NCBI GenBank assembly: GCA_049297675.1
Contig: JBAQUS010000004.1
Coordinates: 13,188 to 77,187 of the forward strand
Direction: 5' to 3'
DNA: 64,000 bases
DNA from: Minisyncoccia bacterium
Lineage (GTDB): Bacteria > Patescibacteriota > Minisyncoccia > Phycocordibacterales > DATDWN01
Part shown: piece by piece, positions 5,331 through 55,043 of the stretch
How positions within the stretch are numbered: position 1 is the first letter of the stretch
How the letters are laid out: every line of letters begins with the position of its first letter
Made by a program: the position numbers and the translations under genes
The notes under the pieces: model-generated
Database searches by the model: none
What the model saw: only the letters and a program-made list of their open reading frames with translations
What the model was told of the DNA's origin: nothing

Positions 5331-5596
5331 ATTATTTAGCGAATACTCGCTATAACCCTGAGCGTTATATTAAAATCTTGCTCCGACTCAAGGGTTTTAT
5401 GAAGGTCTAGCCTTCGCAATTAGAGAGTTAAAAGTCCCTGAAACCACTGAGATATTAAGTTATCCCACCATTATAGCAAATCCACATATTTTTGTCAAAT
5501 AAGCCGAAATAAACGCTTTGTTAGTAAATAAAAATGATATAATTCTTAACATACTTTGAACTATGAAACTCGACGAAAACACATGTTTTCTGGCGT

Positions 5597-5655
5597 ATCT
5601 CGGAATGCGTGTAGCATGAGAGTTAAGGAAAATTTTCAGCAGAAAATTATTCCGG
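5597..5655. repeat. ~58-bp repeated element (atctcggaatgcgtgtagcatgagagttaaggaaaattttcagcagaaaattattccgg), copy 1
   Basis: Paralog of 26311-26368. Sits ~50 bp upstream of the acyltransferase gene. Confidence 0.55.
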
Positions 5656-5706
5656 CACCATAAAATATGTGTTGAGTAAGAGTTTCATGTTCCATAACAA
5701 AAAACA

Positions 5707-6897
5707 ATGCAATTTGGTTATACCAACATCTTTCCCTACTTTGTAATCAGTGCCTTTATGGTCGCATTTTCTATTTTTGTGTTAAAAAGAAGTAGTTTTT
5801 TTCAAAAAATAGCCGAGGCTGAAGTATCTGAGAGATACGAAGCCTTGGATGGTTTACGTGGGTTTCTAGCTATCGGGGTTTTCTTTCAGCATGCTGTACA
5901 AAATTTCTCTTTCTTTCAAACTGGTGTTTGGGTAATCACCGACTCACGGTTTTACAGATTTTTAGGGGGAGAAGCTGTTATATTATTTTTCATTACCACA
6001 AGCTTTTTATATTGGACAAAACTGGTCTTAGTAAAAAGTCACGGTGAAAATCAAATGTTTCGGTTGTATCGAAGCCGGTTACTTAGATTAGCTCCTCTTT
6101 ATCTTTTTTCGGGACTATTGGTCAGTATTATTGCCCTGTATAATGTTGACTTCAGTATTATTTCAATAAGTGGTTTTTTTAGAGATATTTTTTATTGGCT
6201 AACACTTGGACTACACACCATCCAAAGCTTTAACGGCACTGACATAATACCTATCAATGCCGGAATACACTGGACACTAAGATACGAATGGGCATTTTAT
6301 CTCTTACTACCCCTAGTAGCATTTTTGATGAAAAATTCACTTGGTAAAATTGCTTCAGTTCTTATTTTGATAGGAATATTCTCCCTTCCCGACAGAGGAT
6401 ACTGGGCAATATTTCTTTTTGGCATTCTCTCCGCCTATATTGTAAGTTACTACCCATCTATTCCATGGTTTAAGAAAAATAATTGGTCAGCTTTGGTTCC
6501 ACTCGTGGGCCTGTTTCTTGTGTACTCAATAAATTACAAACCATACTCTTATGTTCAATATTTTATCAGTATGATAGTCTTTCTGTGTTTCGTATATGGC
6601 AACAATTTATTTGGATTGTTGAAAACGCCTTTCGCAAAATTTTTGAGCACTATTAGTTACAGTGTCTATCTTTTACATGGAATAGTCCTGTATATTGTTC
6701 TAAATATTGTAAACAAGTTCTATCCCGTAGCATCTCTTAGTCCGCTTCAGTATTGGACTGTCATTCTCTTTGCTGGAATAATAGTTATTGTTGTTTCGGC
6801 TCTATCTTATAGGTTCATTGAACACAGGTTCATAGAGAAAATCAAACTTGGTAAGAAAGGGTCGTCGCCTACACCTGTAATAGAAAAAGTTATTTGA
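5707..6897 (+). CDS. acyltransferase family 3 (OafA-like) integral membrane protein
   Basis: ~10 predicted TM helices with acyltransferase_3-like spacing. ATGA-type overlap with the next gene. Confidence 0.5.
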   Translation: MQFGYTNIFPYFVISAFMVAFSIFVLKRSSFFQKIAEAEVSERYEALDGLRGFLAIGVFFQHAVQNFSFFQTGVWVITDSRFYRFLGGEAVILFFITTSFLYWTKLVLVKSHGENQMFRLYRSRLLRLAPLYLFSGLLVSIIALYNVDFSIISISGFFRDIFYWLTLGLHTIQSFNGTDIIPINAGIHWTLRYEWAFYLLLPLVAFLMKNSLGKIASVLILIGIFSLPDRGYWAIFLFGILSAYIVSYYPSIPWFKKNNWSALVPLVGLFLVYSINYKPYSYVQYFISMIVFLCFVYGNNLFGLLKTPFAKFLSTISYSVYLLHGIVLYIVLNIVNKFYPVASLSPLQYWTVILFAGIIVIVVSALSYRFIEHRFIEKIKLGKKGSSPTPVIEKVI

Positions 6898-7910
6898 TTA
6901 TGCAACACCATATTCATCACAATCATAAAAGGAAAAGGAGAAAAGTTTTTTGGCTTGTCTCACTTTTGGTTATTTCAACTATTTTGATAGCAATGTATTT
7001 TAGCAATAAGGATTCACTCGTAGTAAACGAAAAAATTGCTGTTGCCACTACAACAAAAATAACAAAACCAAAAACAACAGTTAAACCTGAAAAAATCAAA
7101 CCACAGACAAATGGCGAAATGAGTATCTCCGTTTTTCCAGATTCTATTATGCAGGGAGAACCAGCTATTATAAAAGTAAATGGATTGTCATCGACAACAA
7201 ACGTAAAGTCTTTCACGTTCGACAGTCGCCCTCTTATCTTTTTTCTCTATGAGGATGAAGTTACAGCCTTTCTCGGTGTAGATCTAAACTATGCAACCGG
7301 TACTTTTCCACTTGTACTAACCATGAAAGACGGTAAGCAAATTCGTCAAGATTTTGTCATAAAGACACGCCCCGTGGTCAGAATTCCTTTTGATATTCCT
7401 GAAAAACTCGGCGGTAATACACCGCAGAGCGTCAAAATTCTTTTCGCAACACTTGCGCAGGAGGCAAAAATTGTTAACGCCATTCCAACCGGTTACACTA
7501 GACTCTGGACAGATAAATTTAGATCGCCATTAGACACTCCTATTGTTGTAGAAGATCCTTATGGCTACACAAGAATTACCGGAAACTCCACCATGCCTCA
7601 CAAAGGTACGGATATAAGAGCACCTATCGGCACCCCCGTCTATGCTATGAATCGCGGCTTGGTTAAATTTACAGACAATCTTCGCAACTACGGTAACACA
7701 GTGGTTATAGATCATGGACTGGGATTGCAAACTGTCTATATGCATCTTTCAGAAATTAAAGTAGCCAAAGACCAGATGGTAGAAAGAGGAGACATGATTG
7801 CCCTAAGTGGTGACACTGGTTATGTTCTAAACCCACATCTTCATCTGACAGTCAGAATTTGGGATATTTCCATAGACGCCATGAAATTTTTAGAACTTTT
7901 AGGTGAGTAA
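6894..7910 (+). CDS. M23 family (LytM-like) peptidoglycan metalloendopeptidase, membrane-anchored
   Basis: HKGTDIRAPIGTPVYA ... GNTVVIDHG ... GDTGYVLNPHLHLTV (HxxxD and HxH motifs). N-terminal TM. Confidence 0.85.
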   Translation: MIMQHHIHHNHKRKRRKVFWLVSLLVISTILIAMYFSNKDSLVVNEKIAVATTTKITKPKTTVKPEKIKPQTNGEMSISVFPDSIMQGEPAIIKVNGLSSTTNVKSFTFDSRPLIFFLYEDEVTAFLGVDLNYATGTFPLVLTMKDGKQIRQDFVIKTRPVVRIPFDIPEKLGGNTPQSVKILFATLAQEAKIVNAIPTGYTRLWTDKFRSPLDTPIVVEDPYGYTRITGNSTMPHKGTDIRAPIGTPVYAMNRGLVKFTDNLRNYGNTVVIDHGLGLQTVYMHLSEIKVAKDQMVERGDMIALSGDTGYVLNPHLHLTVRIWDISIDAMKFLELLGE

Positions 7911-7928
7911 AATTATCTGAGTGTTAAT

Positions 7929-8855
7929 TTAATTCTTTTTTGACTCCATTAGGTCGTAAATCTCTCTTGAGAGTTTTTTCAGTGAAAATTCCTGCCAAGG
8001 CCACTTAGTTTTAGTAATGGTCAGAACAGCAATAGCATAATGTGAATTTTTACCTTCCACAACTCCTGCATCTCCACTATATTTAATAACAGCATAGCCT
8101 TTATTAAAAGCAGTTCTAATACCATGGTATATGTTCCATTTATATCCATTAATTACTAACCATCCTCCTTTACGGTAGTAACTCTTAAAATCTTTGAGAT
8201 TTAAACCACCCCTTCTGTCCCTGTTCCATCTTAGTAAATAGCTTTTTAATTTTTCTGATACCCACGGATTAACTAATTGTCCTTGCTCCACTTTATAGAA
8301 AAATTCAGCTAAATGACGTGCATTGGATACTGTAATCTTAGAAACACGATATTCACCTTCCTCTTTTAATCTGTCTAGGAACTTTCTAGTTACATCACTC
8401 CCATTCCATCCATTCGGTAAAATTATATTGTTATTAATATTTTCTCTATTGGCTATATCAATAAGTACATTTGAGGCGGTGTTATCACTCCTTGTAAGCA
8501 TGAGGTCTAAAAGGTAGTCTGTGGTGACTTTATCTCCTGTTTTAAGTAGAGGTCTATAATCTTTGTGGGTACATTTTGGGAAAAATCTTACGTTTTTATC
8601 AACCTCATTTACAAGAGTAATCTCTACGACATCTTCAAGTTTTCTCAAACCAGCATTTATTTGTCTCAATATTTCAGCTCCAACAAAAACCTTGTATATA
8701 CTTGCTGGGTAAATAAAGTGATCCATATTAAATCCAGCAATTTGTGCTTCAGGATTTTTTAAATCAATGATGGCCAAAGATATTTCGTTTGGTTTTGGAT
8801 GGAAATTTTCAACAATTTCTTTTATTTTTTGACTAAGTTGTAGATTTTCTTTCAT
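7929..8855 (-). CDS. serine hydrolase of the class A beta-lactamase / D-Ala-D-Ala carboxypeptidase fold
   Basis: SIYK (SxxK), TRSDNTASN (SDN) and KGG motifs. Confidence 0.55.
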   Translation of the reverse strand: MKENLQLSQKIKEIVENFHPKPNEISLAIIDLKNPEAQIAGFNMDHFIYPASIYKVFVGAEILRQINAGLRKLEDVVEITLVNEVDKNVRFFPKCTHKDYRPLLKTGDKVTTDYLLDLMLTRSDNTASNVLIDIANRENINNNIILPNGWNGSDVTRKFLDRLKEEGEYRVSKITVSNARHLAEFFYKVEQGQLVNPWVSEKLKSYLLRWNRDRRGGLNLKDFKSYYRKGGWLVINGYKWNIYHGIRTAFNKGYAVIKYSGDAGVVEGKNSHYAIAVLTITKTKWPWQEFSLKKLSREIYDLMESKKN

Positions 8856-31884: not shown

Positions 31885-32433
31885 ATGAAGTTGCCGACTG
31901 TATCAGCGAATACTATCGTCCGAAGTTGGGATGGTAGACTAGTCATTGTCAAACACAAACAGAAAGCCTACGACATTAGGCTCGAATGTCCGTGGGGTCT
32001 GCCAGGAGGTGGACTTGAAGACGGTGAAACTCCAATCGAAAATGCGATAAGAGAAACGAGACAAGAGATTGGAGTGGATATCAAAGCTCCAAAACTCATC
32101 GGAACGTTCATCCAGAGAGTTAGGGATGACGAAGCTCCGGGTGGCTTCGTCAGTGGCGTACTCCACCTTTTTGTATCAATTGAGTCAGATTTGGAAGGAA
32201 GGATCAGATGGGAAGGATGTGACGAAATAGAGGAGATTGCCCTTCTTGCACCCAAATCCATCTGCGAAAAACGACAGGAGATCGGACTCGGCTACTTTCG
32301 CATGATTCTCAAGTACATGAGATGCATCGACGGTGCTGACAGGTACGGATTCCAAAACCTCCGACTGTCCTTACCTGTTGAGTATCCACGATTCGGACTA
32401 AAAGACAAAGACCAACTTGTTCTTCAGACTTAA
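31885..32433 (+). CDS. NUDIX hydrolase
   Basis: Nudix box GGGLEDGETPIENAIRETRQEIGVD. Strong SD aaaggagg upstream. Confidence 0.75.
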   Translation: MKLPTVSANTIVRSWDGRLVIVKHKQKAYDIRLECPWGLPGGGLEDGETPIENAIRETRQEIGVDIKAPKLIGTFIQRVRDDEAPGGFVSGVLHLFVSIESDLEGRIRWEGCDEIEEIALLAPKSICEKRQEIGLGYFRMILKYMRCIDGADRYGFQNLRLSLPVEYPRFGLKDKDQLVLQT

Positions 32434-44257: not shown

Positions 44258-44580
44258 TGAGTAACAGAAATCAAAGACTAAGTGAAATTCTAAGAGATTT
44301 AGGTGCCCGTTTTCTGCTTCTTAATGGAAACAAATCCTCGCTTTTAACCGTGACAAAATTGGAATTAACAAGGGATGGAAAAAATGCTACTATTTTCTTT
44401 ACGGTTTTTCCAAATAGTTTTGAAAAAACTGCTCTTGAGTTTGCCAAGAGAAAAAGAAGTGATTTTAGAGAATTCGTTAAGGAAAATTCAAAACTAGGAC
44501 ACCTCCCCCAGTTTGATTTTGAAATTGATCTAGGAGAGAAAAACCGTCAAAAAATTGACGGATTATTAAATGAAAAATGA
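44257..44580 (+). CDS. rbfA: ribosome-binding factor A
   Basis: Position directly after infB. RbfA-like N-terminus (NQRLSEILRDLGARFLLL) and length. Confidence 0.65.
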   Translation: MSNRNQRLSEILRDLGARFLLLNGNKSSLLTVTKLELTRDGKNATIFFTVFPNSFEKTALEFAKRKRSDFREFVKENSKLGHLPQFDFEIDLGEKNRQKIDGLLNEK

Positions 44581-44650
44581 CCTAGTCGCCAAGTGGTAAG
44601 GCAAAGCTCTGCAAAAGCTTTATACGGCGGTTCGATTCCGCCCTAGGTCT
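44579..44650 (+). tRNA. tRNA-Cys (anticodon GCA)
   Basis: Manual fold: acceptor gacctag/ctaggtc, anticodon stem aagct/agctt with loop CTGCAAA, T arm ggcgg-ttcgatt-ccgcc. Starts 2 nt inside the rbfA stop codon. Confidence 0.75.
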
Positions 44651-44719
44651 CCCTAAAACATTTACACAGTAAGTGTTTGGGTGAACAATTCATCCAGAGA
44701 GTTGTTGTAACCAAATTTT

Positions 44720-44801
44720 GCTCGGGTGGCGGAACTGGTATACGCGTTCGACTTAAAATCGAATCCCGAAAGGGGTATGGGTTCGATTCCCATCCCGAGC
44801 A
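44720..44801 (+). tRNA. tRNA-Leu (anticodon TAA), type II
   Basis: Acceptor gctcggg/cccgagc, anticodon stem ttcga/tcgaa with loop CTTAAAA, long variable arm, T arm atggg-ttcgatt-cccat. Confidence 0.8.
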
Positions 44802-44850
44802 CAAAATTGAAATAAACTAAAATTAATGTTATAAATTTAAAGTAAAATTT

Positions 44851-44923
44851 GCGCCTATAGCTCAGCTGGTAGAGCAGATCCCTCTTAAGGATAAGGTCCC
44901 AGGTTCGATCCCTGGTGGGCGCA
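44851..44923 (+). tRNA. tRNA-Lys (anticodon CTT)
   Basis: Acceptor gcgccta/tgggcgc (one G-U), D arm gctc-agctggta-gagc, anticodon loop CTCTTAA, T arm ccagg-ttcgatc-cctgg. Confidence 0.75.
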
Positions 44924-45119
44924 CAAGCCGAAATAATCTAAACTGCTTTAGATTATTTCGGACTTGTGCGCAACCAGAATATACCTTTAGGTGATTCTGG
45001 TTGAGGTTTCGGGCTTGTGCGTTATTAAAACATGTTTACTAAATAGTTTGAATCGTGGTTTCAAATTTGTGTGTGAAAGTAAGATAGCAATATAATGTTT
45101 TAGTTTCAAGTTAACAATT

Positions 45120-45203
45120 GGGCGAGTGGCGTAACAGTAGCCGCGCCAGTCTTAGGAACTGGTCCCGTAAGGGGTGGAGGTGCGATTCCTCTCTCGCCCA
45201 CCA
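45120..45203 (+). tRNA. tRNA-Leu (anticodon TAG), type II, CCA encoded
   Basis: Acceptor gggcgag/ctcgccc, anticodon stem ccagt/actgg with loop CTTAGGA, long variable arm, T arm ggagg-tgcgatt-cctct, then ACCA. Confidence 0.8.
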
Positions 45204-45490
45204 ATAAGGAACTAAAGGGTTCTGAATGCGAACCCAAGCGGAACGCCCGAAGGGCGTGCCAAGGATTTTCGCCTGATTCTGCAAGAGAATTCGGGAATTT
45301 TGGTGTGCAAGCGTGCAAGGTTTTTTCGTCGAGACGCAGGTTCGAGCCAAAGATTTCTTTGGCATAGACCTTTTTAGTAAAAAGATCTGAATCAGAAGCG
45401 ATTCTGTCCAATGATTCCGCGTCTTTTAGCCATTGTTGGAAAGGTGCGAGCCAATCATTCTACTTGTGTGAAAGAGAGGTCATTTCTCAT

Positions 45491-45515
45491 CTGTCAAACA
45501 TCCGATGTTTGACAG
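45491..45515. repeat. REP-like palindrome ctgtcaaacatcCgatgtttgacag (copy 1 of 3 around RAYT-1)
   Basis: Palindrome tgtcaaacatc-N-gatgtttgaca, also seen at ~46022-46046 and ~46241-46277. Confidence 0.65.
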
Positions 45516-45555
45516 TAAGTTAGGGGTAGATTATTACCGAAAATGTTAAAACTTT

Positions 45556-46215
45556 TTATACTTCAAAAGTTTTGGTGTCAGCTTTTACCCCGCTATTTTT
45601 TACAAATTTATAATATTCATATTTATCCTCAAATTGGTCTAATACTACTTCCCTTTTTAATATTTCCTTCCAACGATTTTCTGTAACGTAATCCTGATAG
45701 CTAGACCACTCATATTTTTCTGGATTATTACTCCAATGTGAAAGCTCTTTTGGATTTAAATGAACATACGCAGATAAATGTAGTAGTTGTTCATTACTTT
45801 CAACATGAACTGCTTTATACGGACCTTCAAAAAGATGCCCCGAAATTTTATATTTAGTATTGAAGTATTTTGTATACGAGTTAAGTACACGTTGCATATA
45901 TTTCCCAGTTCCACCTTCTTCATTTTCACGAACTATTAGATGAAAATGGTTAGTCATCATCGCAAAAGAAACTAGGTCAACGTATCTTTTCGAAATTATC
46001 TTTTCGTAATCATCACTGTTAATGTCAAACATCCGATGTTTGACATAATTCGAGATCATTCTTGAAACTTGAGGAAAAATAACATTTGCTTGAAAGTATA
46101 AAATGAGAAATAAAAATCTAATTCTATCTCTATCATCCTTGAAGATGATTTTCTTCCCAACTCCCCGATTATATATATGATAGTGTTCCCCAATTTCAAT
46201 ATTATCTCTTCTCAT
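45556..46215 (-). mobile_element. REP-associated tyrosine transposase (RAYT; IS200/IS605 TnpA-like HUH Y1 transposase)
   Basis: HYHIYNRGVGKKIIF, HUH motif MMTNHFHLIV, GHLFEGPYKAVHVESNEQLLHLSAYVHLNP (catalytic Tyr region). Flanked by, and containing, cognate REP palindromes. Confidence 0.8.
46022..46046. repeat. REP-like palindrome atgtcaaacatcCgatgtttgacat located inside the RAYT-1 coding sequence
   Basis: 25-bp perfect palindrome (single central base) seen in the sequence. Confidence 0.6.
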
Positions 46216-46240
46216 AACCTCTCATCCTACATGGACAACT

Positions 46241-46277
46241 ATCCATCTGTCAAACATCGGATGTTTGACAGATGGAT
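46241..46277. repeat. 37-bp REP palindrome atccatctgtcaaacatcGgatgtttgacagatggat, upstream of RAYT-1
   Basis: Perfect palindrome. Central base G versus C in the other copies, i.e. the opposite orientation. Confidence 0.65.
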
Positions 46278-46372: not shown

Positions 46373-46401
46373 TTGACTTTTGGATTTAATTGTGATAGAA
46401 T
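46373..46401 (+). promoter_or_regulatory. near-consensus sigma70-type promoter (TTGACT - 17 bp - TGaTAGAAT extended -10) for the GC-rich SPFH-like gene
   Basis: ttgacttttggatttaattgtgatagaat seen in the sequence. Inference only. Confidence 0.4.
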
Positions 46402-46499
46402 GGTGAGCAGAACGGGAGCGGCAATTCTTGCCCCTTTCGTCGCTCCTTGACACTCTAGTTTTTAGTTTACAAGCGCTTAAATGCGCAGAAGAGGTTAGC

Positions 46500-48038
46500 A
46501 TGTTTTACACTATCGCAATTTCCGTTCTCGTTGCAGTGACAATCTCGGTCCTGATCGTCGTCGGTTGGCTTATCTTCCGTGTCGTACAGACACGGAGGAG
46601 GACACCAGTCATTCATGATTGGGCGCGGAGGGATGATAGTCGCGAGACGACACCCTCCCCGACTCCTACCACGACATCCGGAATTGATGTCGACCTCACA
46701 CTGAATCCTCCCCGCCATACTCCGAAAGGAAATAGCGGAAGAGAACCCGAACCGTTGCCTCCATGTAAATGGAAAAAAGGCACGTTTCGTATCATCTACT
46801 GGGCGGTAATAATTCCGCTCGGAATGATATCTGTCTTCGTTCTGGAGTGGGGTATCCTATCGGGTCTGCCACTCACGTGGAATACCCTGTTGGAATTCAA
46901 CGCAACTTCAGTTGGGCTGACCCTTGTTGTTCTCTGGGTAGCCTACTTCTTGGACACATTCAAGATCGTCAAGTTCAATGAACTCGGCGGTCGTGTGGTA
47001 CTTGGTAGTTTCGAGTCCTACTCTGACGGGATAACTCTCGCACCGAGATGGATTACCGATCTGGTCAAGGTAACGAGAGCAACTGAAGAACTTGATCAAC
47101 CTCACAGTGACCCGTCAAAAATTTTCTGGGGAGACCTAAGCAAACTTCCAGACGGGAAAATCCCGGACGGTATGGTACTACCAATTCGTGTGCCATTCCT
47201 CCAGAGGTCAAGCGATGAAGACTTCGAAGTTCGCTGGCCACTTGAAACAGGAGAGGTCAAAACCAGAATTACAAAGGGCTATGACCTTCTTAGTGCAACG
47301 GATGCTCCTGTCGAGTATTCGATCGGAATCAGATTCATCGACATCCAACGTGTTATCGTTCGACTCAGGTCACTCAAAGCAGCCTACGACTTGGCAACAG
47401 ACTATGCAGAGACGCTCATAACGGGCACTTTGCAGAAAATGTCCGCTGCCGAAGCCCAAGTACTGAAACAGGAAATTTCAGTACATCTTGAGGAACAGAC
47501 GGACAACCGTGTTTTCCAATCGTACGGCTTCGTGATCGACTTCGTGACTTTGAAGTCAATCGGGACTTCGCACACAATCGCGGAATCGCGAGCGCAGGCG
47601 GCAGCAGCTGTCAACCTTGCGAATAAAACGGTTAGAGACGCAAAAGCTACAGCTAAGGCAACCGAACTTCAAGGTGCTTCTGTGGCTGGAGCTGAATTGG
47701 CACTACTCAACGCGAGGTCAGTAGGACTACGCAACATCGTCGACGCTGCGACTTCACGGTCAGGGGGAGTTGAACTCGCCAAAGCTATGGAAGCGGCACG
47801 CGCTATTCAGTTTGGCGCAGATTCGACAGTTGTTGTCCCAGGTGGAAACACTGGGGACGGTCTCGGACTCTTTGGCGCAGCGGTCGGTACAGCAATTAGT
47901 GCTTCGGCCGCACTTGGGAGAAAACCAGCTGGTGAAAAAGCTCTAACAGAGACCCAACCAGCACAACCAACAACTACTACAACACCCCCTGCACGTGGCG
48001 ACAGACGTGGCCATAAGAAAGGGGGTAAGAGGAGTTAG
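46500..48038 (+). CDS. GC-rich membrane protein with SPFH/band-7 (stomatin/flotillin-like) core and Ala-rich C-terminal tail
   Basis: Start taken at MFYTIAISVLVAV (TM). FKIVKFNELGGRVVLGSF...ITLAPRW resembles the SPFH start. AESRAQAAAAVNLANKTVRDAKATAKATELQGAS is an Ala-rich coiled region typical of HflK/flotillin tails. ~50-55% GC against a ~35% background. Confidence 0.4.
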   Translation: MFYTIAISVLVAVTISVLIVVGWLIFRVVQTRRRTPVIHDWARRDDSRETTPSPTPTTTSGIDVDLTLNPPRHTPKGNSGREPEPLPPCKWKKGTFRIIYWAVIIPLGMISVFVLEWGILSGLPLTWNTLLEFNATSVGLTLVVLWVAYFLDTFKIVKFNELGGRVVLGSFESYSDGITLAPRWITDLVKVTRATEELDQPHSDPSKIFWGDLSKLPDGKIPDGMVLPIRVPFLQRSSDEDFEVRWPLETGEVKTRITKGYDLLSATDAPVEYSIGIRFIDIQRVIVRLRSLKAAYDLATDYAETLITGTLQKMSAAEAQVLKQEISVHLEEQTDNRVFQSYGFVIDFVTLKSIGTSHTIAESRAQAAAAVNLANKTVRDAKATAKATELQGASVAGAELALLNARSVGLRNIVDAATSRSGGVELAKAMEAARAIQFGADSTVVVPGGNTGDGLGLFGAAVGTAISASAALGRKPAGEKALTETQPAQPTTTTTPPARGDRRGHKKGGKRS

Positions 48039-48040
48039 TC

Positions 48041-49396
48041 ATGCCTATCGTCGCAATCGTTATCGTACTCCTCTTTCTCGTCTTCGGACGAAGGAAAGGA
48101 AACGATAGCAAATACATTCGAGAGTCAGAGGTCGTTGATACCAAGCCAAATGGTAAAACAGAGACGGAAAAACACACTCTGTGGTGGCACGTCGGCCACT
48201 ACAAACTCGTGTGGCTACAGCACTGGAGGAGGTCAACAACCCTCCGTGTCTCCGCCGGACTGCTTGCTTTCGGGCTGGGAGTCTGGATCTTCCCTCTAAC
48301 GAGGGAATGGTGGAGTTCGCAGTGGGTTAGCTTCGGCCTTTACCTAATTGCCGCTCTGGCCATTATCTGCCTTGGGTTCATGTTGGGCCCGGCGCAGAAA
48401 GTGCCGTTCGAGTACAGGCTCCGGCCTTTATTGCTCATCATTGGAATTGCGATCGCAGTCTACGGACTCGGTGCGAACACCAAGTTCGGTCAGAGCACCT
48501 GGTCGTGGATCGCCTCTCACTTCGGGAGAACAGATGGAAACATCGGTCTAACTCCAGAGGAGACAGCTGACCTACCGGACGGGTTCGTCGAGAGCGACAA
48601 TCCGAACCACTGGTCAAACCACGTCACCGATGAAAATCGTGATGTGGTCAACATGGTCCGGGCTGCCGTCCAGAGCGAACTTGTCCCAACCCATTGGGAC
48701 CTCGCCATGCAGATCTGCGGTATGGAATCGGCATGGTTTCGTCAGTTCGATGAGGACGGTAATGTTCTCAGAAACGTCAAAAACAATGACGGGTCAATCG
48801 ACTACGGAGTCTGTCAGATCAACTCCATATGGATGAAAAAGTCCAAGGAGTTGGGAGATGGTTTCCGGATCGACGGGCCGGCTGACGAAAACATTCGAAT
48901 GGCCATGTGGATCTGGACGAATCCAGAAACACGTGGGCCACGCGAGTGGACCGGTACGTACAACACAGCTCTTGCTGTTGTCCGCAATGCGCGGACAACG
49001 CCAGAGACTGTGAACGCACGTCGAACTCCAGAGAGGTCACCGGCTGAACAGGAGACTGTTCAGGCTGGGATCGCACTGGTCTCACAAACTGAGCCAATTC
49101 ACCAGCAACGCAACCCACAAAGAGAGGTGTCTGTCACAGCCATGTTTCCAGGATGGGTCACCGACAAGTCCTCCATGACCTGCGACCTCGAAGAGGACGC
49201 AGAAATCGAGGCGGTCGGTGAGCCTGGAATATTTTACTGGAGTGACACAAACTTCAGTACGAACATCCTAAAGCCTGGAGAAACTGCTTCACTTGCTGGA
49301 TTCAAATGCGTTGCAGTCAGATACTTTTCCCCAACGTTTGGGGGAAAACTGACTGAGGGTCAGAGCCCTTACGCAATCGTGAGACGATACAAATAA
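48041..49396 (+). CDS. GC-rich polytopic membrane protein (4 TM) with C-terminal lysozyme-like / lytic-transglycosylase-like domain
   Basis: ICGMESAWFRQF...NNDGSIDYGVCQINSIWM. The catalytic E-S plus the DG-S-x-DYG-x-x-QIN-S motif is very close to the C-type lysozyme signature (FESNFNT...NTDGSTDYGIFQINSRWW) and compatible with the SLT E-S...GLMQ pattern. Confidence 0.55.
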   Translation: MPIVAIVIVLLFLVFGRRKGNDSKYIRESEVVDTKPNGKTETEKHTLWWHVGHYKLVWLQHWRRSTTLRVSAGLLAFGLGVWIFPLTREWWSSQWVSFGLYLIAALAIICLGFMLGPAQKVPFEYRLRPLLLIIGIAIAVYGLGANTKFGQSTWSWIASHFGRTDGNIGLTPEETADLPDGFVESDNPNHWSNHVTDENRDVVNMVRAAVQSELVPTHWDLAMQICGMESAWFRQFDEDGNVLRNVKNNDGSIDYGVCQINSIWMKKSKELGDGFRIDGPADENIRMAMWIWTNPETRGPREWTGTYNTALAVVRNARTTPETVNARRTPERSPAEQETVQAGIALVSQTEPIHQQRNPQREVSVTAMFPGWVTDKSSMTCDLEEDAEIEAVGEPGIFYWSDTNFSTNILKPGETASLAGFKCVAVRYFSPTFGGKLTEGQSPYAIVRRYK

Positions 49397-49431
49397 ACTA
49401 GAGTTAGAGAGGAGTACACATGTTCGCATGA

Positions 49432-49460
49432 GGCCGTTACCCGATAAGGGAACGGCCTCT
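49432..49460 (+). terminator. rho-independent terminator gaggccgttacccgataagggaacggcctc + T-run
   Basis: 9-bp GC stem followed by ttttta. Ends the GC-rich two-gene module. Confidence 0.7.
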
Positions 49461-49495
49461 TTTTATGCATGATGATATATAAAATTTCTCTACAG

Positions 49496-49526
49496 AAAAC
49501 CGCTCAAGTTGTGAGCGGTTTTCTGT
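49496..49526 (-). terminator. terminator hairpin agaaaaccgctcaagttgtgagcggttttct for the minus-strand pilin-like array
   Basis: Stem aaaaccgctca/tgagcggtttt, convergent with the 49432 terminator. Confidence 0.65.
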
Positions 49527-49536
49527 GACTAACTTG

Positions 49537-49827
49537 TTAATAGTTTCGTATTATAGCGTTGACTGCTGCGTTATTAGGTGCCACCCCGAAAGTGTTAAGG
49601 ACGAAGTGAACCAACCCATAAACCGAAAACATTATGACCATTCCCACTATTCCCCAGACCATGGAATCTCTGGACTCCTTTCTGGTATTTCCTTTATCGT
49701 CTGCATCAGAAGATAAAAACTTGATGGCCCCCCATACAAAGTACAGAAAGGCTATAGCAAACATGAGGAAAATCAATGGATTCAGTATAACGTTTGCTAC
49801 ATTACGTAGAAAAGGAACAATAGTCAT
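49537..49827 (-). CDS. TrbC/VirB2-like 'T4SS pilin' family paralog, N-terminally short (no signal peptide)
   Basis: Core motif PLIFLMFAIAFLYFVWGAIKFLSS..DDKG..RKESRDSMVWGIVGMVIMFSVYGLV is shared with the six upstream paralogs. Confidence 0.5.
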   Translation of the reverse strand: MTIVPFLRNVANVILNPLIFLMFAIAFLYFVWGAIKFLSSDADDKGNTRKESRDSMVWGIVGMVIMFSVYGLVHFVLNTFGVAPNNAAVNAIIRNY

Positions 49828-49852
49828 GTACTAGTTTCGTTAACTAGACTGA

Positions 49853-50206
49853 TTACAGACCTGTAACTGTTGGAACTGTACCAGTTGTGATGTTTTGAAC
49901 ACCAAATGTAGATTGTAACCATGCAACCAATCCGTAGATTGAGATCATGACTGCTATTGCAATCACACCCCAAATCATCTGGTTTCTACCTGCCTCCTGT
50001 GCCTTAGGATCCCCAGCTGAACGTAGGAATGTAACCAAGCCCCAGAAGAAGAACACTATCGCTAGACCGAAAACTATAGGGATAAGTGTTCTAACTGTTG
50101 TTGCAATGAAAGTAAGAAGTGCTTGCAAACCTGTTAAGTTTGGAGTCTGGGCGAAAGCCAAGACTGGAGCAAGAAAAGATCCTACTGAAATGACAATTTT
50201 TTTCAT
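49853..50206 (-). CDS. secreted two-TM TrbC/VirB2-like 'T4SS pilin' family protein (paralog 1)
   Basis: Signal peptide ending AFAQ. LIPIVFGLAIVFFFWGLVTFLRSAGDPKAQEAGRNQMIWGVIAIAVMISIYGLVAW. Confidence 0.6.
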   Translation of the reverse strand: MKKIVISVGSFLAPVLAFAQTPNLTGLQALLTFIATTVRTLIPIVFGLAIVFFFWGLVTFLRSAGDPKAQEAGRNQMIWGVIAIAVMISIYGLVAWLQSTFGVQNITTGTVPTVTGL

Positions 50207-50311
50207 TTTTTTGTTAATATTACGATTAATAATGCTATTATAGTACTTTTTAAAAATAATGCAAGTCCTCGGTCAAATAGACTCTGTGGATTAGTTTACT
50301 TCCAGTTATAC

Positions 50312-50689
50312 TTAGTTTGGACTAAAACATGTTTCAAAGTTAGTACAAGACTCAATACTAAAGACATTTCCAAGAAATGCCACTATTCCAAATAATGATA
50401 GAATGATGAACATGCCTATAATACCCCATAACATCCTTTGTTTTCCTTCCTCACGGGATTTAGAATCACCAGAATTTAGTACAAATTGTGCCACACCCCA
50501 TATAAAGAAAAGCAAAGCAACACTGCCTAGGATTGGTACTAATATATCAACTAAATCCTTAAATTCCTGAGCAAAAGTCTGAATAGTTTGAGCCGAAAGA
50601 ATGGTTGGAAAAATAGACCAAGACAAAGACACTACAAAAAATATTCTGCTGGTGTAACCATGAGAAAATATAAATTTTCTTACCATCAA
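50312..50689 (-). CDS. secreted two-TM TrbC/VirB2-like 'T4SS pilin' family protein (paralog 2)
   Basis: Signal peptide ..LSAQ. LVPILGSVALLFFIWGVAQFVLNSGDSKSREEGKQRMLWGIIGMFIILSLFGIVAF. Confidence 0.6.
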   Translation of the reverse strand: MMVRKFIFSHGYTSRIFFVVSLSWSIFPTILSAQTIQTFAQEFKDLVDILVPILGSVALLFFIWGVAQFVLNSGDSKSREEGKQRMLWGIIGMFIILSLFGIVAFLGNVFSIESCTNFETCFSPN

Positions 50690-50711
50690 AATAGTTAATG
50701 TTACAAAATTA

Positions 50712-51071
50712 TTATAAAGAAGTACAGATCATTGACCCGATTGGACACCCTGTTTGTGGTATCCCTAGAGCAGTATTTATAAATGCCACTATTCCGAATA
50801 TAGACATTATTACGAACATACCAACTACACCCCATATCATCCTTTGTTTTCCCTCTTCTCTCAGTTTGGTATCGCCAGCATTTAGAATAAATGTAGCTAC
50901 ACCCCACATAAAGAACATAAAAGCCAAACCGAAGACGATGGGTATAAGAAGTCGAACTATATTTCCGAATTCAGTCACTAGTGTTCTTACCACGGCTAGA
51001 CTCTGGGCAAAAATAAAAACAGGAAATAAAAGTTGTGGTGCATAAATTAAAAATTTTAGATTTTTCTTCAT
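50712..51071 (-). CDS. secreted two-TM TrbC/VirB2-like 'T4SS pilin' family protein (paralog 3)
   Basis: Signal peptide ..IFAQ. LIPIVFGLAFMFFMWGVATFILNAGDTKLREEGKQRMIWGVVGMFVIMSIFGIVAF. Confidence 0.6.
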   Translation of the reverse strand: MKKNLKFLIYAPQLLFPVFIFAQSLAVVRTLVTEFGNIVRLLIPIVFGLAFMFFMWGVATFILNAGDTKLREEGKQRMIWGVVGMFVIMSIFGIVAFINTALGIPQTGCPIGSMICTSL

Positions 51072-51140
51072 ATTTTTTATTTATTTCTATTTATTACTAT
51101 CAGTTATGCATTATAATACATACAACACAAAAGTACAAGG

Positions 51141-51524
51141 CTAAAATCTAATGAAAACAAAGGCAGGATCAGCATCAGTAGAGCCATTCAACCCTACAGC
51201 GTTTATAACAACACCAATGATTGCTCTTACAGATAGTAGGACAAATAAAGCAATTGTTCCCCAAAGCATATATTTTCTTCCATTTTCTATTTCCGTTTTA
51301 TTTCCAGATCGAATAAAAAATTTAGAAAGACCCCAAATAAATACTAAAACAGCTAAAGAAAGAAAGGCTGGCAGGATTGTGTTGTAAATAAGTTCTCCTG
51401 TGGTGAAGGCGGCATCTCCAAATGTGCCACCCGGAGGTATAAGTTGGGCATAAGCAATAATCGGAAAAACACTGACAACAAGGTTTGAAATGAACCTGTA
51501 GTGCTTTAAAAAAAAAGTTTTCAT
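51141..51524 (-). CDS. secreted two-TM TrbC/VirB2-like 'T4SS pilin' family protein (paralog 4)
   Basis: Signal peptide ..AYAQ. ILPAFLSLAVLVFIWGLSKFFIRSGNKTEIENGRKYMLWGTIALFVLLSV. Confidence 0.55.
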   Translation of the reverse strand: MKTFFLKHYRFISNLVVSVFPIIAYAQLIPPGGTFGDAAFTTGELIYNTILPAFLSLAVLVFIWGLSKFFIRSGNKTEIENGRKYMLWGTIALFVLLSVRAIIGVVINAVGLNGSTDADPAFVFIRF

Positions 51525-51536
51525 TATTGATAAATT

Positions 51537-51899
51537 TTAACCAACAGTGATTAGTTGACTAACCGTATTTCTAACCAGCTCTGATATGGCCACAGCTCCG
51601 AGGAGAATTCCTCCGCCTATGAGAGCCCAGAGAAGTCTCTGTTTTGCCTCGCCAAGTTTTTTCTCATTACCTTGGGCAGTTACAAAAGTAAAGCCTGCAT
51701 AAATAATGTACATTACAACCACCACGGCTCCTATAGGCAAAACCACGTTGTTAAGGAGTGCAGTTAAAATATCAATGAGATTGCTTCCTGCTTTGGTGGC
51801 CGGATTGGTAATGGTAATATTTTGAGCGAACAAAACTACTGGCAAAATAATATTAGCGAGTATCAGAAGAATTTTTGTGTATTTTTTATATATTTTCAT
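51537..51899 (-). CDS. secreted two-TM pilin-like protein (divergent paralog 5)
   Basis: Signal peptide ..LFAQ. VLPIGAVVVVMYIIYAGFTFVTAQGNEKKLGEAKQRLLWALIGGGILLGAVAI has the same architecture with a weaker motif. Confidence 0.45.
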   Translation of the reverse strand: MKIYKKYTKILLILANIILPVVLFAQNITITNPATKAGSNLIDILTALLNNVVLPIGAVVVVMYIIYAGFTFVTAQGNEKKLGEAKQRLLWALIGGGILLGAVAISELVRNTVSQLITVG

Positions 51900-51903
51900 A
51901 TTA

Positions 51904-52314
51904 TTAACCTAGAAAAGTTGGAATATTATCATCTAATAATGCTGTGGTGATAAGTCTAACTAACACCCAGGCGATTATTATAATAGCAATACCCTGTACA
52001 ACTTTAAGAAGCATACCCGCGGCTTTTGCCCGCTCCGAAGCACTCTCTCCACCCATCATAAACCTAAAGCCAGCCCAAGCGATAACTATAACAGAAAAAC
52101 CTAGGGCAAACTTAGTTCCTTCGTTTGTCACTCGTCTTACGGCTCTTATCAGGTCATCAAATGTACACTCTCCTGCTATCCCACCAACTCCGGGACACTC
52201 GTAAACAAACTGGGCATGGCTTACTAGTGGTGTAAAAAGAAAAAGAAAAACAAGAAACAGGAGAATTTTTGATGCCAAATTATTTAAAAATGTACTTCTC
52301 ATTTTGTTAAACAT
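51904..52314 (-). CDS. secreted two-TM pilin-like protein (divergent paralog 6, Cys-containing mature N-terminus)
   Basis: Signal peptide ..SHAQ. ...FSVIVIAWAGFRFMMGGESASERAKAAGMLLKVVQGIAIIIIAWVLV. Confidence 0.45.
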   Translation of the reverse strand: MFNKMRSTFLNNLASKILLFLVFLFLFTPLVSHAQFVYECPGVGGIAGECTFDDLIRAVRRVTNEGTKFALGFSVIVIAWAGFRFMMGGESASERAKAAGMLLKVVQGIAIIIIAWVLVRLITTALLDDNIPTFLG

Positions 52315-53603
52315 TATGATTTGATTAGAGCAGTCAGTTCTGTTTCCGCTCTGTTTAAGGCATCAGATGCTCTAGACCTTCCACTAGTTATGCTCTCAAT
52401 CATATCACGAAACAGATTTGAAGTTGCCTGTGGTTCAGGATCAATCCACGACCTGGAGATTAAGGCAGAATCATAGAATACTTGCATGTGAGCCTCTGGA
52501 GGCTTCACAGAAAGCATGTCTCTTCTTACAGGAGGTAGGTTTGTAATGCCACCTATTCCCTTTATAGCTTCGACCTCTGTCAGAGCGTTTAGGGCTATAA
52601 AGGAGGCCTGGATATTTTTGGATTGCTTTACAATGGATATACCGTAGAGATGTCCGAAAACTACTTTCTTTTTGCTATCTCTTATTTGTGGAACCGAAGT
52701 GACACCGTAATTTAGATTTGGATTTTTTTGTTGAATACCAACTAGCTCACTAGCAAAACCAAAATAAATAGCCAAATTTCCGGAGAGAAAGAAGTTGGAT
52801 GAAGATGGAAGGGACCTATTCCAGGAATATGAGACAAGGTTTGGATTAGAAAATTGGATGTAAAAATCTGTTGCTGACTGGCTCGGAGTCCTAGGATATC
52901 CGAACTGAAGGTTAAGCACTGTATCAAGCCCATTTTCCTCCCTCTGTATTATTGGTGTTCCAGCTTGGAGCATGAGCATTATGAGTAACTCCTTGGCACT
53001 TGTGATATTTCTCCATTCACCGAAAGCTATAGTTGATTGAGAAATATTGGCCTGACCGTCTTTTTTGGTGATCTTTGGAACCAAGTCTGGAATCTCGTCC
53101 CAGTATTTAGGAGGGGACGCAATAAAGTTGCTGGAGAATAAGTCTCTATTCCAATACATAACCATGGGATCAATAATGAATGGCAAAGCTAATATGCCTT
53201 CTGGAGTAAGAAACAATTCCCCTTCTTCTATAAACCTGTCCTTGAAATCCCTCTCTGGATAAAATTCCGATGGTATTGGATAAAGTTTATTTCTATTTTT
53301 GTAAACCAAATCCTCTCTAAGAATAACTATGTCTGGCCCTCTACCTTCTGCCAGAGCCTCGACAAAGTCTCTATCAAAATCTGATGGGTCCTTTCTGACA
53401 TACATCACTCTTATGTTTTTATTTCCAGAAAGTGACGAAGCTATATAAGCATTTGTAAATGCATCGTCCGAAATAGTTCCCCATGCGACTAGACCAGCAG
53501 ATACATTTGCTGTACCGGTATTTTTACTCAAGGCAAAAACCATAATACCTGCAACTATGGCCACAGAGAAGACGGCTATGACAGCTATTTTAAACGTACT
53601 CAT
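52314..53603 (-). CDS. membrane-anchored extracellular solute-binding-protein-like protein (family 1 SBP fold)
   Basis: N-terminal TM, then LVAWGTISDDAFTNAYIASS...FVEALAEGRGPDIVIL resembles SBP_bac_1 N-lobe. No adjacent permease or ATPase genes. Confidence 0.4.
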   Translation of the reverse strand: MSTFKIAVIAVFSVAIVAGIMVFALSKNTGTANVSAGLVAWGTISDDAFTNAYIASSLSGNKNIRVMYVRKDPSDFDRDFVEALAEGRGPDIVILREDLVYKNRNKLYPIPSEFYPERDFKDRFIEEGELFLTPEGILALPFIIDPMVMYWNRDLFSSNFIASPPKYWDEIPDLVPKITKKDGQANISQSTIAFGEWRNITSAKELLIMLMLQAGTPIIQREENGLDTVLNLQFGYPRTPSQSATDFYIQFSNPNLVSYSWNRSLPSSSNFFLSGNLAIYFGFASELVGIQQKNPNLNYGVTSVPQIRDSKKKVVFGHLYGISIVKQSKNIQASFIALNALTEVEAIKGIGGITNLPPVRRDMLSVKPPEAHMQVFYDSALISRSWIDPEPQATSNLFRDMIESITSGRSRASDALNRAETELTALIKS

Positions 53604-53640: not shown

Positions 53641-54168
53641 TTACATCTTCTTAAAGATTAATCCGTAGTGATGTGCTCCGGCGGAAATTTCCCTGTCTAT
53701 ACTAAAGCCCTGCTTTTCAAAAAGCTCTTTGGCTTTTGGTTTTTTAACAACATCGATCGGTTTTGGACCAATTCCACCGAATGAATCTGACCAGTCTATT
53801 ACCAATACCCTTCCCCCGGGTTTTAAAATTCTTTTGGCCTCTTTTATTGCCCCGACTTTATCATCTAGCTGAAAAAGAAGATTGCAAATAAAAACCAGAT
53901 CAACAGAAGAATCCCTAAGTTTTGCTCCATTTGGCTTTTCGACATTACCCCATACTACTTCTATGTTATAAAGGCCTTCTTTTGTTGAGTTATTTTTCAA
54001 TCTGGTCAGTAGCTCTTTATCTACGTCAATAGCGTAAACCCTACCAGTTGAAATGAGCGCCCTTGAAGCAGCCATGGAGTAATGTCCCGAGCCAGAACCA
54101 AAATCTGCAATATCCATCCCGGCCTGTATTCCACACTGCTCTATGTTTTTTATTGGATCGGAGAACAT
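53641..54168 (-). CDS. class I SAM-dependent methyltransferase
   Basis: Motif I IADFGSGSGHYS, motif II VDLVFICNLL, LKPGGRVLVIDW. Confidence 0.8.
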   Translation of the reverse strand: MFSDPIKNIEQCGIQAGMDIADFGSGSGHYSMAASRALISTGRVYAIDVDKELLTRLKNNSTKEGLYNIEVVWGNVEKPNGAKLRDSSVDLVFICNLLFQLDDKVGAIKEAKRILKPGGRVLVIDWSDSFGGIGPKPIDVVKKPKAKELFEKQGFSIDREISAGAHHYGLIFKKM

Positions 54169-54365: not shown

Positions 54366-55043
54366 CTAGTAACTATCTTTATATTCTAACCAATCAGTTA
54401 TATTATCATTAAAATCAAAGATACTTGAAAAATACTCAGGGAAATTAGTTTTGTCTAAAATCATACCCGCTTCCCTCTTTTGTCCGACATAATCTAAATA
54501 ACTAGAACAATCATAATTCGATAGAAATTTTTTAGCTTTACTAATGTTTTTTATTCCAGATTCTTTCCAGTCATATTCAATTAATTTAACTGGATTAAGA
54601 TGAATGTAAGAAAATAAATATTTCAAATATTCATCAGAGTCAGCATGTTCTGCTTTATATGTACCCTGAAACAACGAACCCACTCTATCATTTAATTTAT
54701 TAAAGTAGGTAGAATAGCCCGTAGTCAATTTTTCCATAAACATAGCTGTACCGCCCTCAACAATTTCTCTAACAAGAATATGAAAATGATTTGGCATTAA
54801 AACCCATGCTCCTATTGCAACGAGTTGCTCGCCCCTGTTAATATCTTTCAATGGTAAGTCTATTGTTGTGCTGTACCTATAAGGAAGAGTATTGTTTGCA
54901 AGATATAAGAGTCTAATAAATCTCTTATAATCATTCTGTGAAATAAAAATATCGCGCTTTTCAACTCCTCGATTATATATATGGTAAAACTCGCCTTCAG
55001 ATATGACTATTTTTCTTTGCATAGAAGCACTATATACTAACAA
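54366..55043 (-). mobile_element. REP-associated tyrosine transposase (RAYT; IS200/IS605 TnpA-like), second paralog
   Basis: FYHIYNRGVEKRDIF, HUH LMPNHFHILV, GSLFQGTYKAEHADSDEYLKYLFSYIHLNP. Flanked on both sides by ctagggtaaccctag REP palindromes. Confidence 0.8.

Follow-up and report, generated by a model that had tools for sequence, protein, structure and literature searches.

A polytopic lysozyme-superfamily protein encoded beside a VirB2-like pilin array in a Minisyncoccia bacterium: a candidate pilus-associated counterpart of VirB1 and EtgA

A gene on the forward strand of contig JBAQUS010000004.1 from a Minisyncoccia bacterium (48041–49396 in the 64-kb stretch analyzed here, referred to as the window) encodes a polytopic membrane protein that carries a lysozyme-superfamily domain and adjoins an array of VirB2-like pilin genes. 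The domain combines a nearly invariant Glu with an Asp in the position of D52 of hen egg-white lysozyme (HEWL), and the protein is best read as a pilus-associated functional counterpart of VirB1 and EtgA that standard profiles miss. With moderate confidence, and on the basis of sequence and a structural model, we propose that it is an extracytoplasmic peptidoglycan glycosidase, held at the bacterium’s own membrane by a four-helix anchor, which would open the bacterium’s own wall for a VirB2-like filament. In the current NCBI taxonomy, Minisyncoccia is a class within the phylum Minisyncoccota, which we take to correspond to the Patescibacteria or candidate phyla radiation (CPR). Patescibacteria are a large, mostly uncultured bacterial branch living attached to other microbes.

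The open reading frame (ORF) starts with an ATG, has an AGGAG motif 7 nt 5′ of it, and encodes 451 residues. Its product is identical to the NCBI hypothetical protein WAX44_00835 (Minisyncoccia bacterium), and the same protein is found on five contigs. A Kyte–Doolittle scan identified four hydrophobic segments, at about residues 1–21, 68–86, 92–123, and 125–149, in the N-terminal membrane region (48041–48487); delimited more narrowly, they span about residues 2–16, 68–86, 97–117, and 128–148. The loops at residues 17–67 and 118–127 are rich in Lys and Arg, so that, by the positive-inside rule, the remainder of the protein, including the enzyme domain, is predicted to lie outside the cytoplasm. 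The catalytic domain (residues 175–320; 48563–49000), delimited by AlphaFold2, Foldseek, hhalign, and a profile search, begins about 25 residues beyond the fourth membrane segment. It is followed by a linker rich in Pro, Thr, Arg, Glu, and Gln (about residues 321–362; 49001–49126), which is alignable in part within the tight family, and by a variable β-rich domain (residues 363–451; 49127–49393). In a 302-residue model of the whole extracellular part, both the linker, with a predicted local distance difference test (pLDDT) score below 50–60, and the β-strands of the C-terminal domain are of low confidence. The original prediction of four membrane helices, a Pro/Thr/Arg-rich linker, and an uncharacterized C-terminal domain was borne out by these scans. 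N-terminal hydrophobic segments, between two and six in number, also occur in 22 of 27 relatives of the long class.

The C-terminal domain cannot be aligned between the window and the related locus L001. For the window protein and nine relatives, no Pfam match to this domain was found at E-values up to 10; the idea that it might be an NfeD-type partner of an SPFH protein was left unsupported by these 10 C-terminal pieces. Cupin-like and Ena1C matches (E ∼0.01) obtained with Foldseek for the 302-residue model fell on the low-confidence C-terminal part and were dismissed as unreliable.

The active site maps to the block CGMESAWFRQFDEDGNVLRNVKNNDGSIDYGVCQINSIWMKK (residues 226–267; 48716–48841), which was delimited from the translation, the secondary structure of the model, and conservation. 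E229 (codon 48725–48727) is located at the C-terminal end of a helix, and D254 (codon 48800–48802) in a strand just ahead of the G256..Q259 hairpin turn. Alignment of the family with HEWL using hhalign (probability 94.8%, E 5.5e-8) pairs E229 with E35, N248 with N46, D254 with D52, Y255 with Y53, G256 with G54, Q259 with Q57, I260 with I58, N261 with N59, S262 with S60, W264 with W62, and W303 with W108, and E229–S230 aligns to E35–S36. The 13-residue signature of the C-type lysozymes of glycoside hydrolase family 22 (GH22c), HEWL residues 52–64 as defined in PMC2976769, shares eight identities with D254-Y-G-V-C-Q-I-N-S-I-W-M-K; V257 faces I55, and Cys64 is absent. The original prediction described the GH22 hallmark as reproduced almost position for position. 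This applies to the hairpin, where N248..W264 matches HEWL N46..W62, but not to the Glu, which is shifted by an 8-residue insertion behind it, the Glu-to-Asp spacing being 25 residues here versus 17 in lysozyme. Because of this insertion, an ungapped single-sequence HMMER alignment places D237, not E229, under HEWL E35.

Searched as a single sequence, the domain has hen lysozyme as its top PDB sequence match, but only marginally (E 0.018–0.04). With a profile of 119 relatives, the E-value falls to 1.4e-6 for C-type lysozymes and 2.8e-6 for EtgA, and the Glu and Asp are aligned. Judged by these comparisons, the resemblance to lysozyme exceeds chance. In an alignment of 149 relatives, the catalytic Glu is present in 148 and the Asp equivalent in 146, which confirms the conservation expected of these two residues; S230, G256, Q259, and N261 are found in 142, 147, 140, and 137 relatives, respectively. 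The only Cys residues of the catalytic domain, C226 and C258, do not align to any lysozyme Cys, and none of the four lysozyme disulfides (6–127, 30–115, 64–80, and 76–94) is present. Most relatives carry a single Cys pair that is unlike those of lysozyme, and the subfamily of the window protein lacks this pair. A conserved Cys pair is also seen in small paralogues of about 150 residues, one of which adjoins DsbD-, thioredoxin-, and DsbB-like genes in L012 (within 4190–8483).

The AlphaFold2 model of residues 170–325, built with 149 sequences, has a mean pLDDT of 94.5. A helix spanning model residues 47–60 ends at E60, which corresponds to E229, and a short strand (model residues 85–86) corresponds to D254–Y255, so that D254 sits ahead of the G256..Q259 turn as D52 does in lysozyme. 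In a Foldseek search of the PDB, C-type lysozymes accounted for 49 of the top 50 matches (E 4e-3 to 5.5e-2, approximately 20% identity), with template modeling (TM) scores of 0.26 to 0.52, mostly 0.45 to 0.5. The remaining match, EtgA (4xp8), gave the best superposition (target TM-score 0.68, root mean square deviation 2.6 Å, 91 columns, probability 1.00, E 0.027). Canonical Slt structures were not found among the top 50 PDB matches, and phage SLT-domain proteins were the best, though weak, matches among viral models. Based on the model, the fold is that of the lysozyme superfamily, at about the same distance from GH22 as from GH23 and closest to EtgA; the superposition on lysozymes and EtgA agrees with the lysozyme-like fold originally predicted.

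An exhaustive profile search over 1.84 billion representative proteins, using a threshold of E 1e-3, yielded at least 455 bacterial or metagenomic relatives. The tight subfamily consists of five clusters only (E below 1e-48), and the other relatives are secreted or singly anchored proteins of 120–170 residues or polytopic proteins of about 300–560 residues. The family consensus reads IAxCESxxxQFxxxGxVL...DxGxxQINxxWxxKAxELGxDI...GNxxMAxWIY...GxxxW. The catalytic domain is the best-conserved portion of the protein (62–65% identity), and the anchor and C terminus vary. A word-index search showed that 112 of 115 relatives lack a precomputed Pfam domain, and the matches among 80 relatives were all weak (SLT, 19, at E below 0.01; SLT_3, 18; Lys, 14; an Rpf-type model, 4). 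The family is thus an unannotated branch of the lysozyme clan.

On the Pfam Lys model (PF00062, gathering cutoff 27 bits), the domain of the window protein scored 14.5 bits and 10 individually scored relatives at most 26.2 bits; the best E-value among the 80 relatives was 1.6e-6. The identification as a GH22 C-type lysozyme is contradicted by these scores, together with the absence of the four disulfides, the 8-residue insertion, and the purely bacterial distribution. The Pfam SLT model (PF01464) did not match the window protein at E up to 1 for the full length or E up to 10 for the domain. A homologue, P0003, scored 24.3 bits on this model and passes its cutoff of 21.3 bits, with other relatives at 17.7–21.0 bits, and the looser SLT/GH23 pattern that had also been noted in the window sequence is compatible with this result. 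Nevertheless, with its D52-like Asp retained, the family is not a clean GH23/SLT member as far as its sequences tell. Profile searches therefore upheld the predicted clan in part: the lysozyme-clan signal emerges through the family profile, but the window protein itself stays below the Lys cutoff and has no SLT match. Its score on the NCBIfam IagB model was 14.3 bits, compared with an equivalog cutoff of 208.

Scanning the tight-family alignment against genome and metagenome contig collections gave no confirmed relative. There was no tblastn match of the domain at E 0.01 or better in plasmids and phages, and no match in PHROGs or among PADLOC defense systems, so that an origin from a prophage, plasmid, or defense island is unsupported. 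A literature search found nothing specific on the SLT_3 family, on this architecture, on the polytopic lysozyme-like family, or on the pairing with SPFH proteins described below.

The closest parallel is provided by EtgA, IagB, and IpgF, specialized peptidoglycan-lytic enzymes of type III secretion systems that have been described as hybrids of lysozymes and lytic transglycosylases (LTs) (PMC10880428). These proteins (PDB 4XP8 and 8URN) also have a Glu-Ser at the end of a helix and an N-x5-D-x-G-x-x-Q-I-N hairpin with a D52-like Asp; E42, N54, D60, Q65, and N67 of EtgA correspond to E229, N248, D254, Q259, and N261 here, and the hairpin spacing is identical. The presence of the same residue set in EtgA, IagB, and IpgF (PMC10880428) means that the hallmark is not unique to animal lysozymes. 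D60 of EtgA is the counterpart of lysozyme D52, and a D60N mutation lowers both activity and secretion; EtgA has been called a muramidase/LT hybrid, its product chemistry being still undecided, and Slt70 has an Ala at the D52 position (PMC10880428). In lysozyme relatives, a second acid on strand β2 accompanies retaining hydrolysis (PMC7511926, PMC2976769), the Glu–Asp carboxylate distance in the retaining GH22 geometry being about 5.8 Å (PMC2976769, Table 2). Since the second acid goes with retaining hydrolysis, the D52-like Asp of the window protein suggests muramidase chemistry, without proving it over that of an LT. The products of GH23 LTs have 1,6-anhydroMurNAc ends.

Like EtgA, the window protein may have a genetic tie to a filament-building surface machine, to judge by the pilin gene neighborhood. 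The differences are considerable. EtgA-type enzymes are soluble periplasmic proteins of about 150 residues from diderm bacteria, with a signal peptide and a disulfide, whereas the protein described here has 451 residues and four membrane segments, belongs to a monoderm-like Patescibacterium, lacks a disulfide, and has a linker and an extra C-terminal domain. It also has a 5–8 residue insertion after the Glu, and its neighbors are VirB2-like pilins rather than a type III secretion rod protein. With GH22 C-type lysozymes, which supply the top Foldseek and PDB sequence matches, the family shares the aligned active-site residues, but it is bacterial, membrane-anchored, and only about 20% identical, and differs in the missing GH22 disulfides and in the insertion between the Glu and the hairpin. 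With GH23 family-1 enzymes and VirB1, it has in common the superfamily, the E-S motif, the G-x-x-Q hairpin, and a proposed role in breaching the wall locally to let a pilus or secretion machine through; it differs from GH23 in retaining the D52-like Asp, in the lack of an SLT match of the window protein, and in the lack of a VirB4 gene in the 64-kb window.

Membrane-anchored SLT-type hydrolases are standard in Gram-positive type IV secretion systems (T4SSs; e.g., PrgK and TraG of pIP501), so that anchoring is less unusual than the original prediction suggested. In PrgK, TraG of pIP501, and CwlT, all wall hydrolases of Gram-positive conjugation systems, an N-terminal membrane anchor carries a wall-facing lysozyme/SLT-like domain. 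As proposed for the window protein, these are enzymes for a type IV–related machine in a monoderm envelope (PMC12102498). In addition, they carry a CHAP or LytM peptidase domain, have one anchor only, and are encoded within the T4SS operon, whereas the window protein has four segments, no peptidase domain, a C-terminal domain without a family match, and, in four related loci, an SPFH-type neighbor.

Seven VirB2-like pilin genes (T4SS_pilin, PF18895, assigned with Pfam) form an array on the reverse strand (49537–52314), convergent with the lysozyme-like gene. They are followed, also on the reverse strand, by genes for a solute-binding protein (SBP; 52314–53603) and a methyltransferase (MTase; 53641–54168), which are syntenic in all long loci, and by a GyrA gene beyond these. 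The order of upstream membrane protein gene, polytopic lysozyme-like gene, convergent pilin array, SBP gene, and MTase gene recurs in L001 (GCA_021733565.1), L002–L004, L007, L008, and the P0006 contig (GCA_015689235.1). On the short contigs L005 and L006, pilin-like ORFs lie directly 3′ of the lysozyme-like gene; hence, the polytopic form adjoins a VirB2-like pilin array in every locus examined (the window, L001–L008, and the P0006 contig). The suggestion in the original prediction of a role in pilus biogenesis fits this conserved position. Identity between loci is 59–84% for the SBP and 71% for the MTase; these two genes form a conserved frame, with a tie to the lysozyme-like gene that is one of position. 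All seven pilins have one-to-one orthologues in L001 (48–95% identity), and the pilin array is therefore old and stable, unlike the adjoining cassette of the lysozyme-like gene and its upstream partner (see below). The paralogues within the array are just 11–31% identical to its first gene.

A pilin hidden Markov model (HMM) detected no pilins near the small paralogues in L009–L015. These paralogues are encoded among housekeeping, wall-synthesis, and disulfide-formation genes (MurG, FtsW, Peptidase_M23, and DsbB) or within a compact operon whose genes are small. In L009 and L010, the operon is tight, with very small genes that share a strand, and resembles a mobile element or phage.

Genes for a MurA-like protein, MurB, and alanine racemase are present in the window, and the organism therefore makes peptidoglycan. 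Patescibacterial VirB2 arrays have 2–11 genes, and few VirB1 homologues have been found; most VirB2-carrying Patescibacteria lack a detectable VirB1, so pilus biogenesis may not need one or other glycosidases may serve (PMC12102498). Going by that study, the family presented here would escape the VirB1 profiles used for Patescibacteria. In the T4SS cluster of Southlakia, the one system tested, the pilin series is essential for epibiotic growth (PMC10633639).

The gene upstream of the lysozyme-like gene (46500–48038, forward strand) encodes a 512-residue membrane protein (WAX44_00830), and its stop codon (48036–48038) is 2 nt ahead of the lysozyme-like ATG. Its slot is occupied by a gene for an SPFH/stomatin protein in L001, L002, L007, and L008, with Band_7 (PF01145) E-values from 1.1e-11 to 8.6e-4; L001 (45.5 bits) and L007 (27.7 bits) pass the gathering cutoff of 23.6 bits, and L002 (21.4 bits) and L008 (19.8 bits) are just below it. 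The best match of a joint profile of these SPFH partners was stomatin PH1511 (E 1.9e-11), ahead of HflK, QmcA, and prohibitin. These four loci resemble SPFH/stomatin operons (PH1511, QmcA, and HflK/C) in that an SPFH gene, here immediately ahead of the lysozyme-like gene and in close translational proximity to it, is paired with a polytopic membrane partner; they differ in that the usual partner is NfeD or the FtsH protease, and the C-terminal domains here carry no NfeD signal. For the 512-residue protein of the window, the sole match among 5.8 billion clustered proteins was the protein itself, and there was no match in the PDB. It scored 11.9 bits on Band_7 (E 0.23), below the cutoff, and homology to the SPFH partners elsewhere was not demonstrable (hhalign probability 0.2%, BLASTP E 0.42); its resemblance to them is limited to a short G-T-x-V-x-G-G stretch and to a basic tail rich in Pro and Thr.

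Together, the upstream gene and the lysozyme-like gene form a cassette that stands out in composition and divergence. Of 48 ORFs of at least 150 residues in the window, these two have the highest GC content at third codon positions (GC3; 0.60 for the lysozyme-like gene and 0.48 for its partner, compared with a median of 0.30). GC3 of the gene pair is also high in L001, L002, L007, and L008 (0.43–0.67 vs 0.17–0.40 for the neighbors). The GC3-rich cassette spans 46428–49396 in the window, 4323–6943 in L001, 4360–7477 in L002, 6733–9138 in L007, and 3672–5914 in L008. When the window is compared with L001, the two lysozyme-like proteins share 43% identity across 65% of the length and the upstream genes have no detectable similarity, compared with 84% identity for the SBP and the 48–95% noted above for the pilins; the cassette is thus far more diverged than the flanking pilin, SBP, and MTase genes. 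Its composition and divergence could stem from repeated replacement out of a pool richer in GC, from GC-biased conversion at a hot spot of recombination, or from codon selection. The third GC3 outlier of the window is a NUDIX hydrolase gene at 31885–32433 (GC3 0.45, GC 0.47).

At the upstream edge of the cassette, a consensus scan called a promoter-like site (TTGACT-17-TAGAAT with TG, 10 of 12 matches; 46373–46401, forward strand), which coincides with the point where the GC content jumps. At its downstream end, a terminator-like hairpin, GAGGCCGTT..AACGGCCTC, with a T run behind it (49431–49470, forward strand), was read from the sequence and was not called by the consensus scan. A perfect 15-nt inverted repeat, ACAGAAAACCGCTCA / TGAGCGGTTTTCTGT, at 49492–49526, just past the 3′ end of the first pilin gene, is probably that gene’s terminator and separate from the hairpin. 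Further upstream, four tRNA genes (44579–45203; Cys-GCA, Leu-TAA, Lys-CTT, and Leu-TAG) follow right after rbfA, just ahead of an IS200-like Y1 transposase gene (45556–46215, reverse strand) and the cassette; the ORFs listed at 45106–45411 overlap the last tRNA gene and are probably spurious. Three copies of a 28-nt palindromic repeat, CATCTGTCAAACATCCGATGTTTGACAG, lie within this transposase gene and around it (45488–46274), an arrangement like that of REP/RAYT elements. A second Y1 transposase paralogue (54366–55043), 38% identical to the first, is located on the far side of the MTase gene; the cassette, the pilin genes, and the genes for the SBP and MTase lie between the two transposase genes.

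Within the proposed mechanism, the enzyme would cut the MurNAc–GlcNAc backbone of the bacterium’s own wall locally, with E229 as the putative general acid and N248, D254, Q259, and N261 contributed by the β-hairpin. The local cut would let a VirB2-like filament or secretion apparatus cross the wall, a task performed by VirB1 in type IV systems and by EtgA in type III systems. Confinement or regulation of this dangerous wall-cutting activity may fall to the membrane anchor together with the upstream membrane protein, and the variable C-terminal domain on its flexible linker may bind components of the wall or pilus. Several observations weigh against this proposal. Among the large ORFs of the window, none was identified as VirB4 or as another ATPase of type IV secretion, so that the pilin genes are the sole link to a secretion machine, and the lysozyme-like gene and the pilin array are convergent and not co-transcribed. 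The upstream partner in the window cannot be shown to be an SPFH protein. The Foldseek E-values are weak, none being 1e-3 or lower, and the TM-scores to lysozymes are just 0.45–0.5. Finally, the fast divergence and foreign composition of the cassette suit a role in host interaction as well as one in housekeeping assembly.

This last point bears on the possibility, also raised in the original prediction, that the enzyme acts on the wall of a host at the site of pilus contact, the cassette being a host-range determinant exchanged or diversified in an arms race. The contrast in divergence between the cassette and the pilin and SBP genes, the foreign composition at synonymous sites in every locus, and the variable C-terminal domain on its flexible linker would all fit, as would the epibiotic life of Patescibacteria, in which growth on hosts requires the pilins (PMC10633639). 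However, a catalytic domain starting some 25 residues past the fourth segment is tethered near the producer’s membrane, the protein shows no sign of a cleavage or release signal, and it is the catalytic domain that is best conserved, the anchor and C terminus being the variable parts. Some relatives in the class parasitize archaea that have no peptidoglycan, and this also weighs against action on a host wall, which we consider unlikely. We are somewhat more skeptical of a bolder version, in which the two-gene cassette is a mobile or fast-diversifying host-specificity module of the VirB2-like pilus and an enzyme with a retaining, hen-lysozyme-like Glu/Asp mechanism opens peptidoglycan where epibiont and host touch. 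In that case, lineages would have exchanged the cassette repeatedly, which would account for its persistently high GC3 and for its replacement from one close relative to the next.

Part of the evidence could also be accommodated by an ordinary SLT-type (GH23) LT serving general wall turnover or division, with the pilin adjacency a mere matter of conserved gene order: P0003 and the 19 SLT matches point that way, the viral models most similar in structure are phage SLT-domain proteins, the small paralogues sit among housekeeping and wall genes, and the whole neighborhood (IF-2, RbfA ... SBP, MTase, GyrA) is syntenic, so that the order is conserved anyway. What makes this improbable is the D52-like Asp in nearly all relatives, where Slt70 has an Ala (PMC10880428), the absence of canonical Slt from the top 50 Foldseek matches, the distinctness of the polytopic pilin-adjacent form as a long class, and the strong variation of the cassette within a conserved frame that does not vary. 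Far less probable still is a catalytically dead module that, like α-lactalbumin, would have given up catalysis and would anchor the pilus base or an SPFH assembly to peptidoglycan. The lack of the Cys pair in the subfamily of the window protein and the large noncatalytic parts would be in keeping with such a scaffold, but almost no variation is seen in the Glu-Ser, the Asp, or the residues that contact the substrate (Q259 and N261), and inactive lysozyme relatives replace the Glu (PMC7511926). A true GH22 gene moved from an animal into a bacterium, which the animal C-type lysozymes at the top of the PDB sequence and fold matches and the foreign gene composition might bring to mind, is effectively excluded: the 455 relatives are bacterial or metagenomic with conserved features and an insertion of their own, the disulfides are absent, the individually scored members fall below the Pfam Lys cutoff, identity is about 20%, and the same cassette and composition bias occur in lineages related at only about 30–40% identity. 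A related possibility, to which we give no more weight than to the host-specificity module, is that the animal C-type lysozymes have their closest prokaryotic relatives in this large bacterial family that lacks annotation.

What is new here is the architecture and the lineage in which an EtgA-like, putatively pilus- or secretion-associated lysozyme/LT hybrid occurs; the kind of enzyme is already known. If the preferred reading, local opening of the bacterium’s own wall, is correct, the polytopic family would be a concrete candidate for the missing VirB1-type wall-opening enzyme of Patescibacteria; its architecture is defined, its partner gene is conserved, and its catalytic residues can be tested. 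The GC3-rich, fast-diverging cassette may mark a host-interaction locus. With this large family of uncultured bacteria, the reach of the EtgA-like lysozyme/LT hybrid active site widens beyond the type III systems of proteobacteria, which bears on the kinship of C-type lysozymes and transglycosylases.

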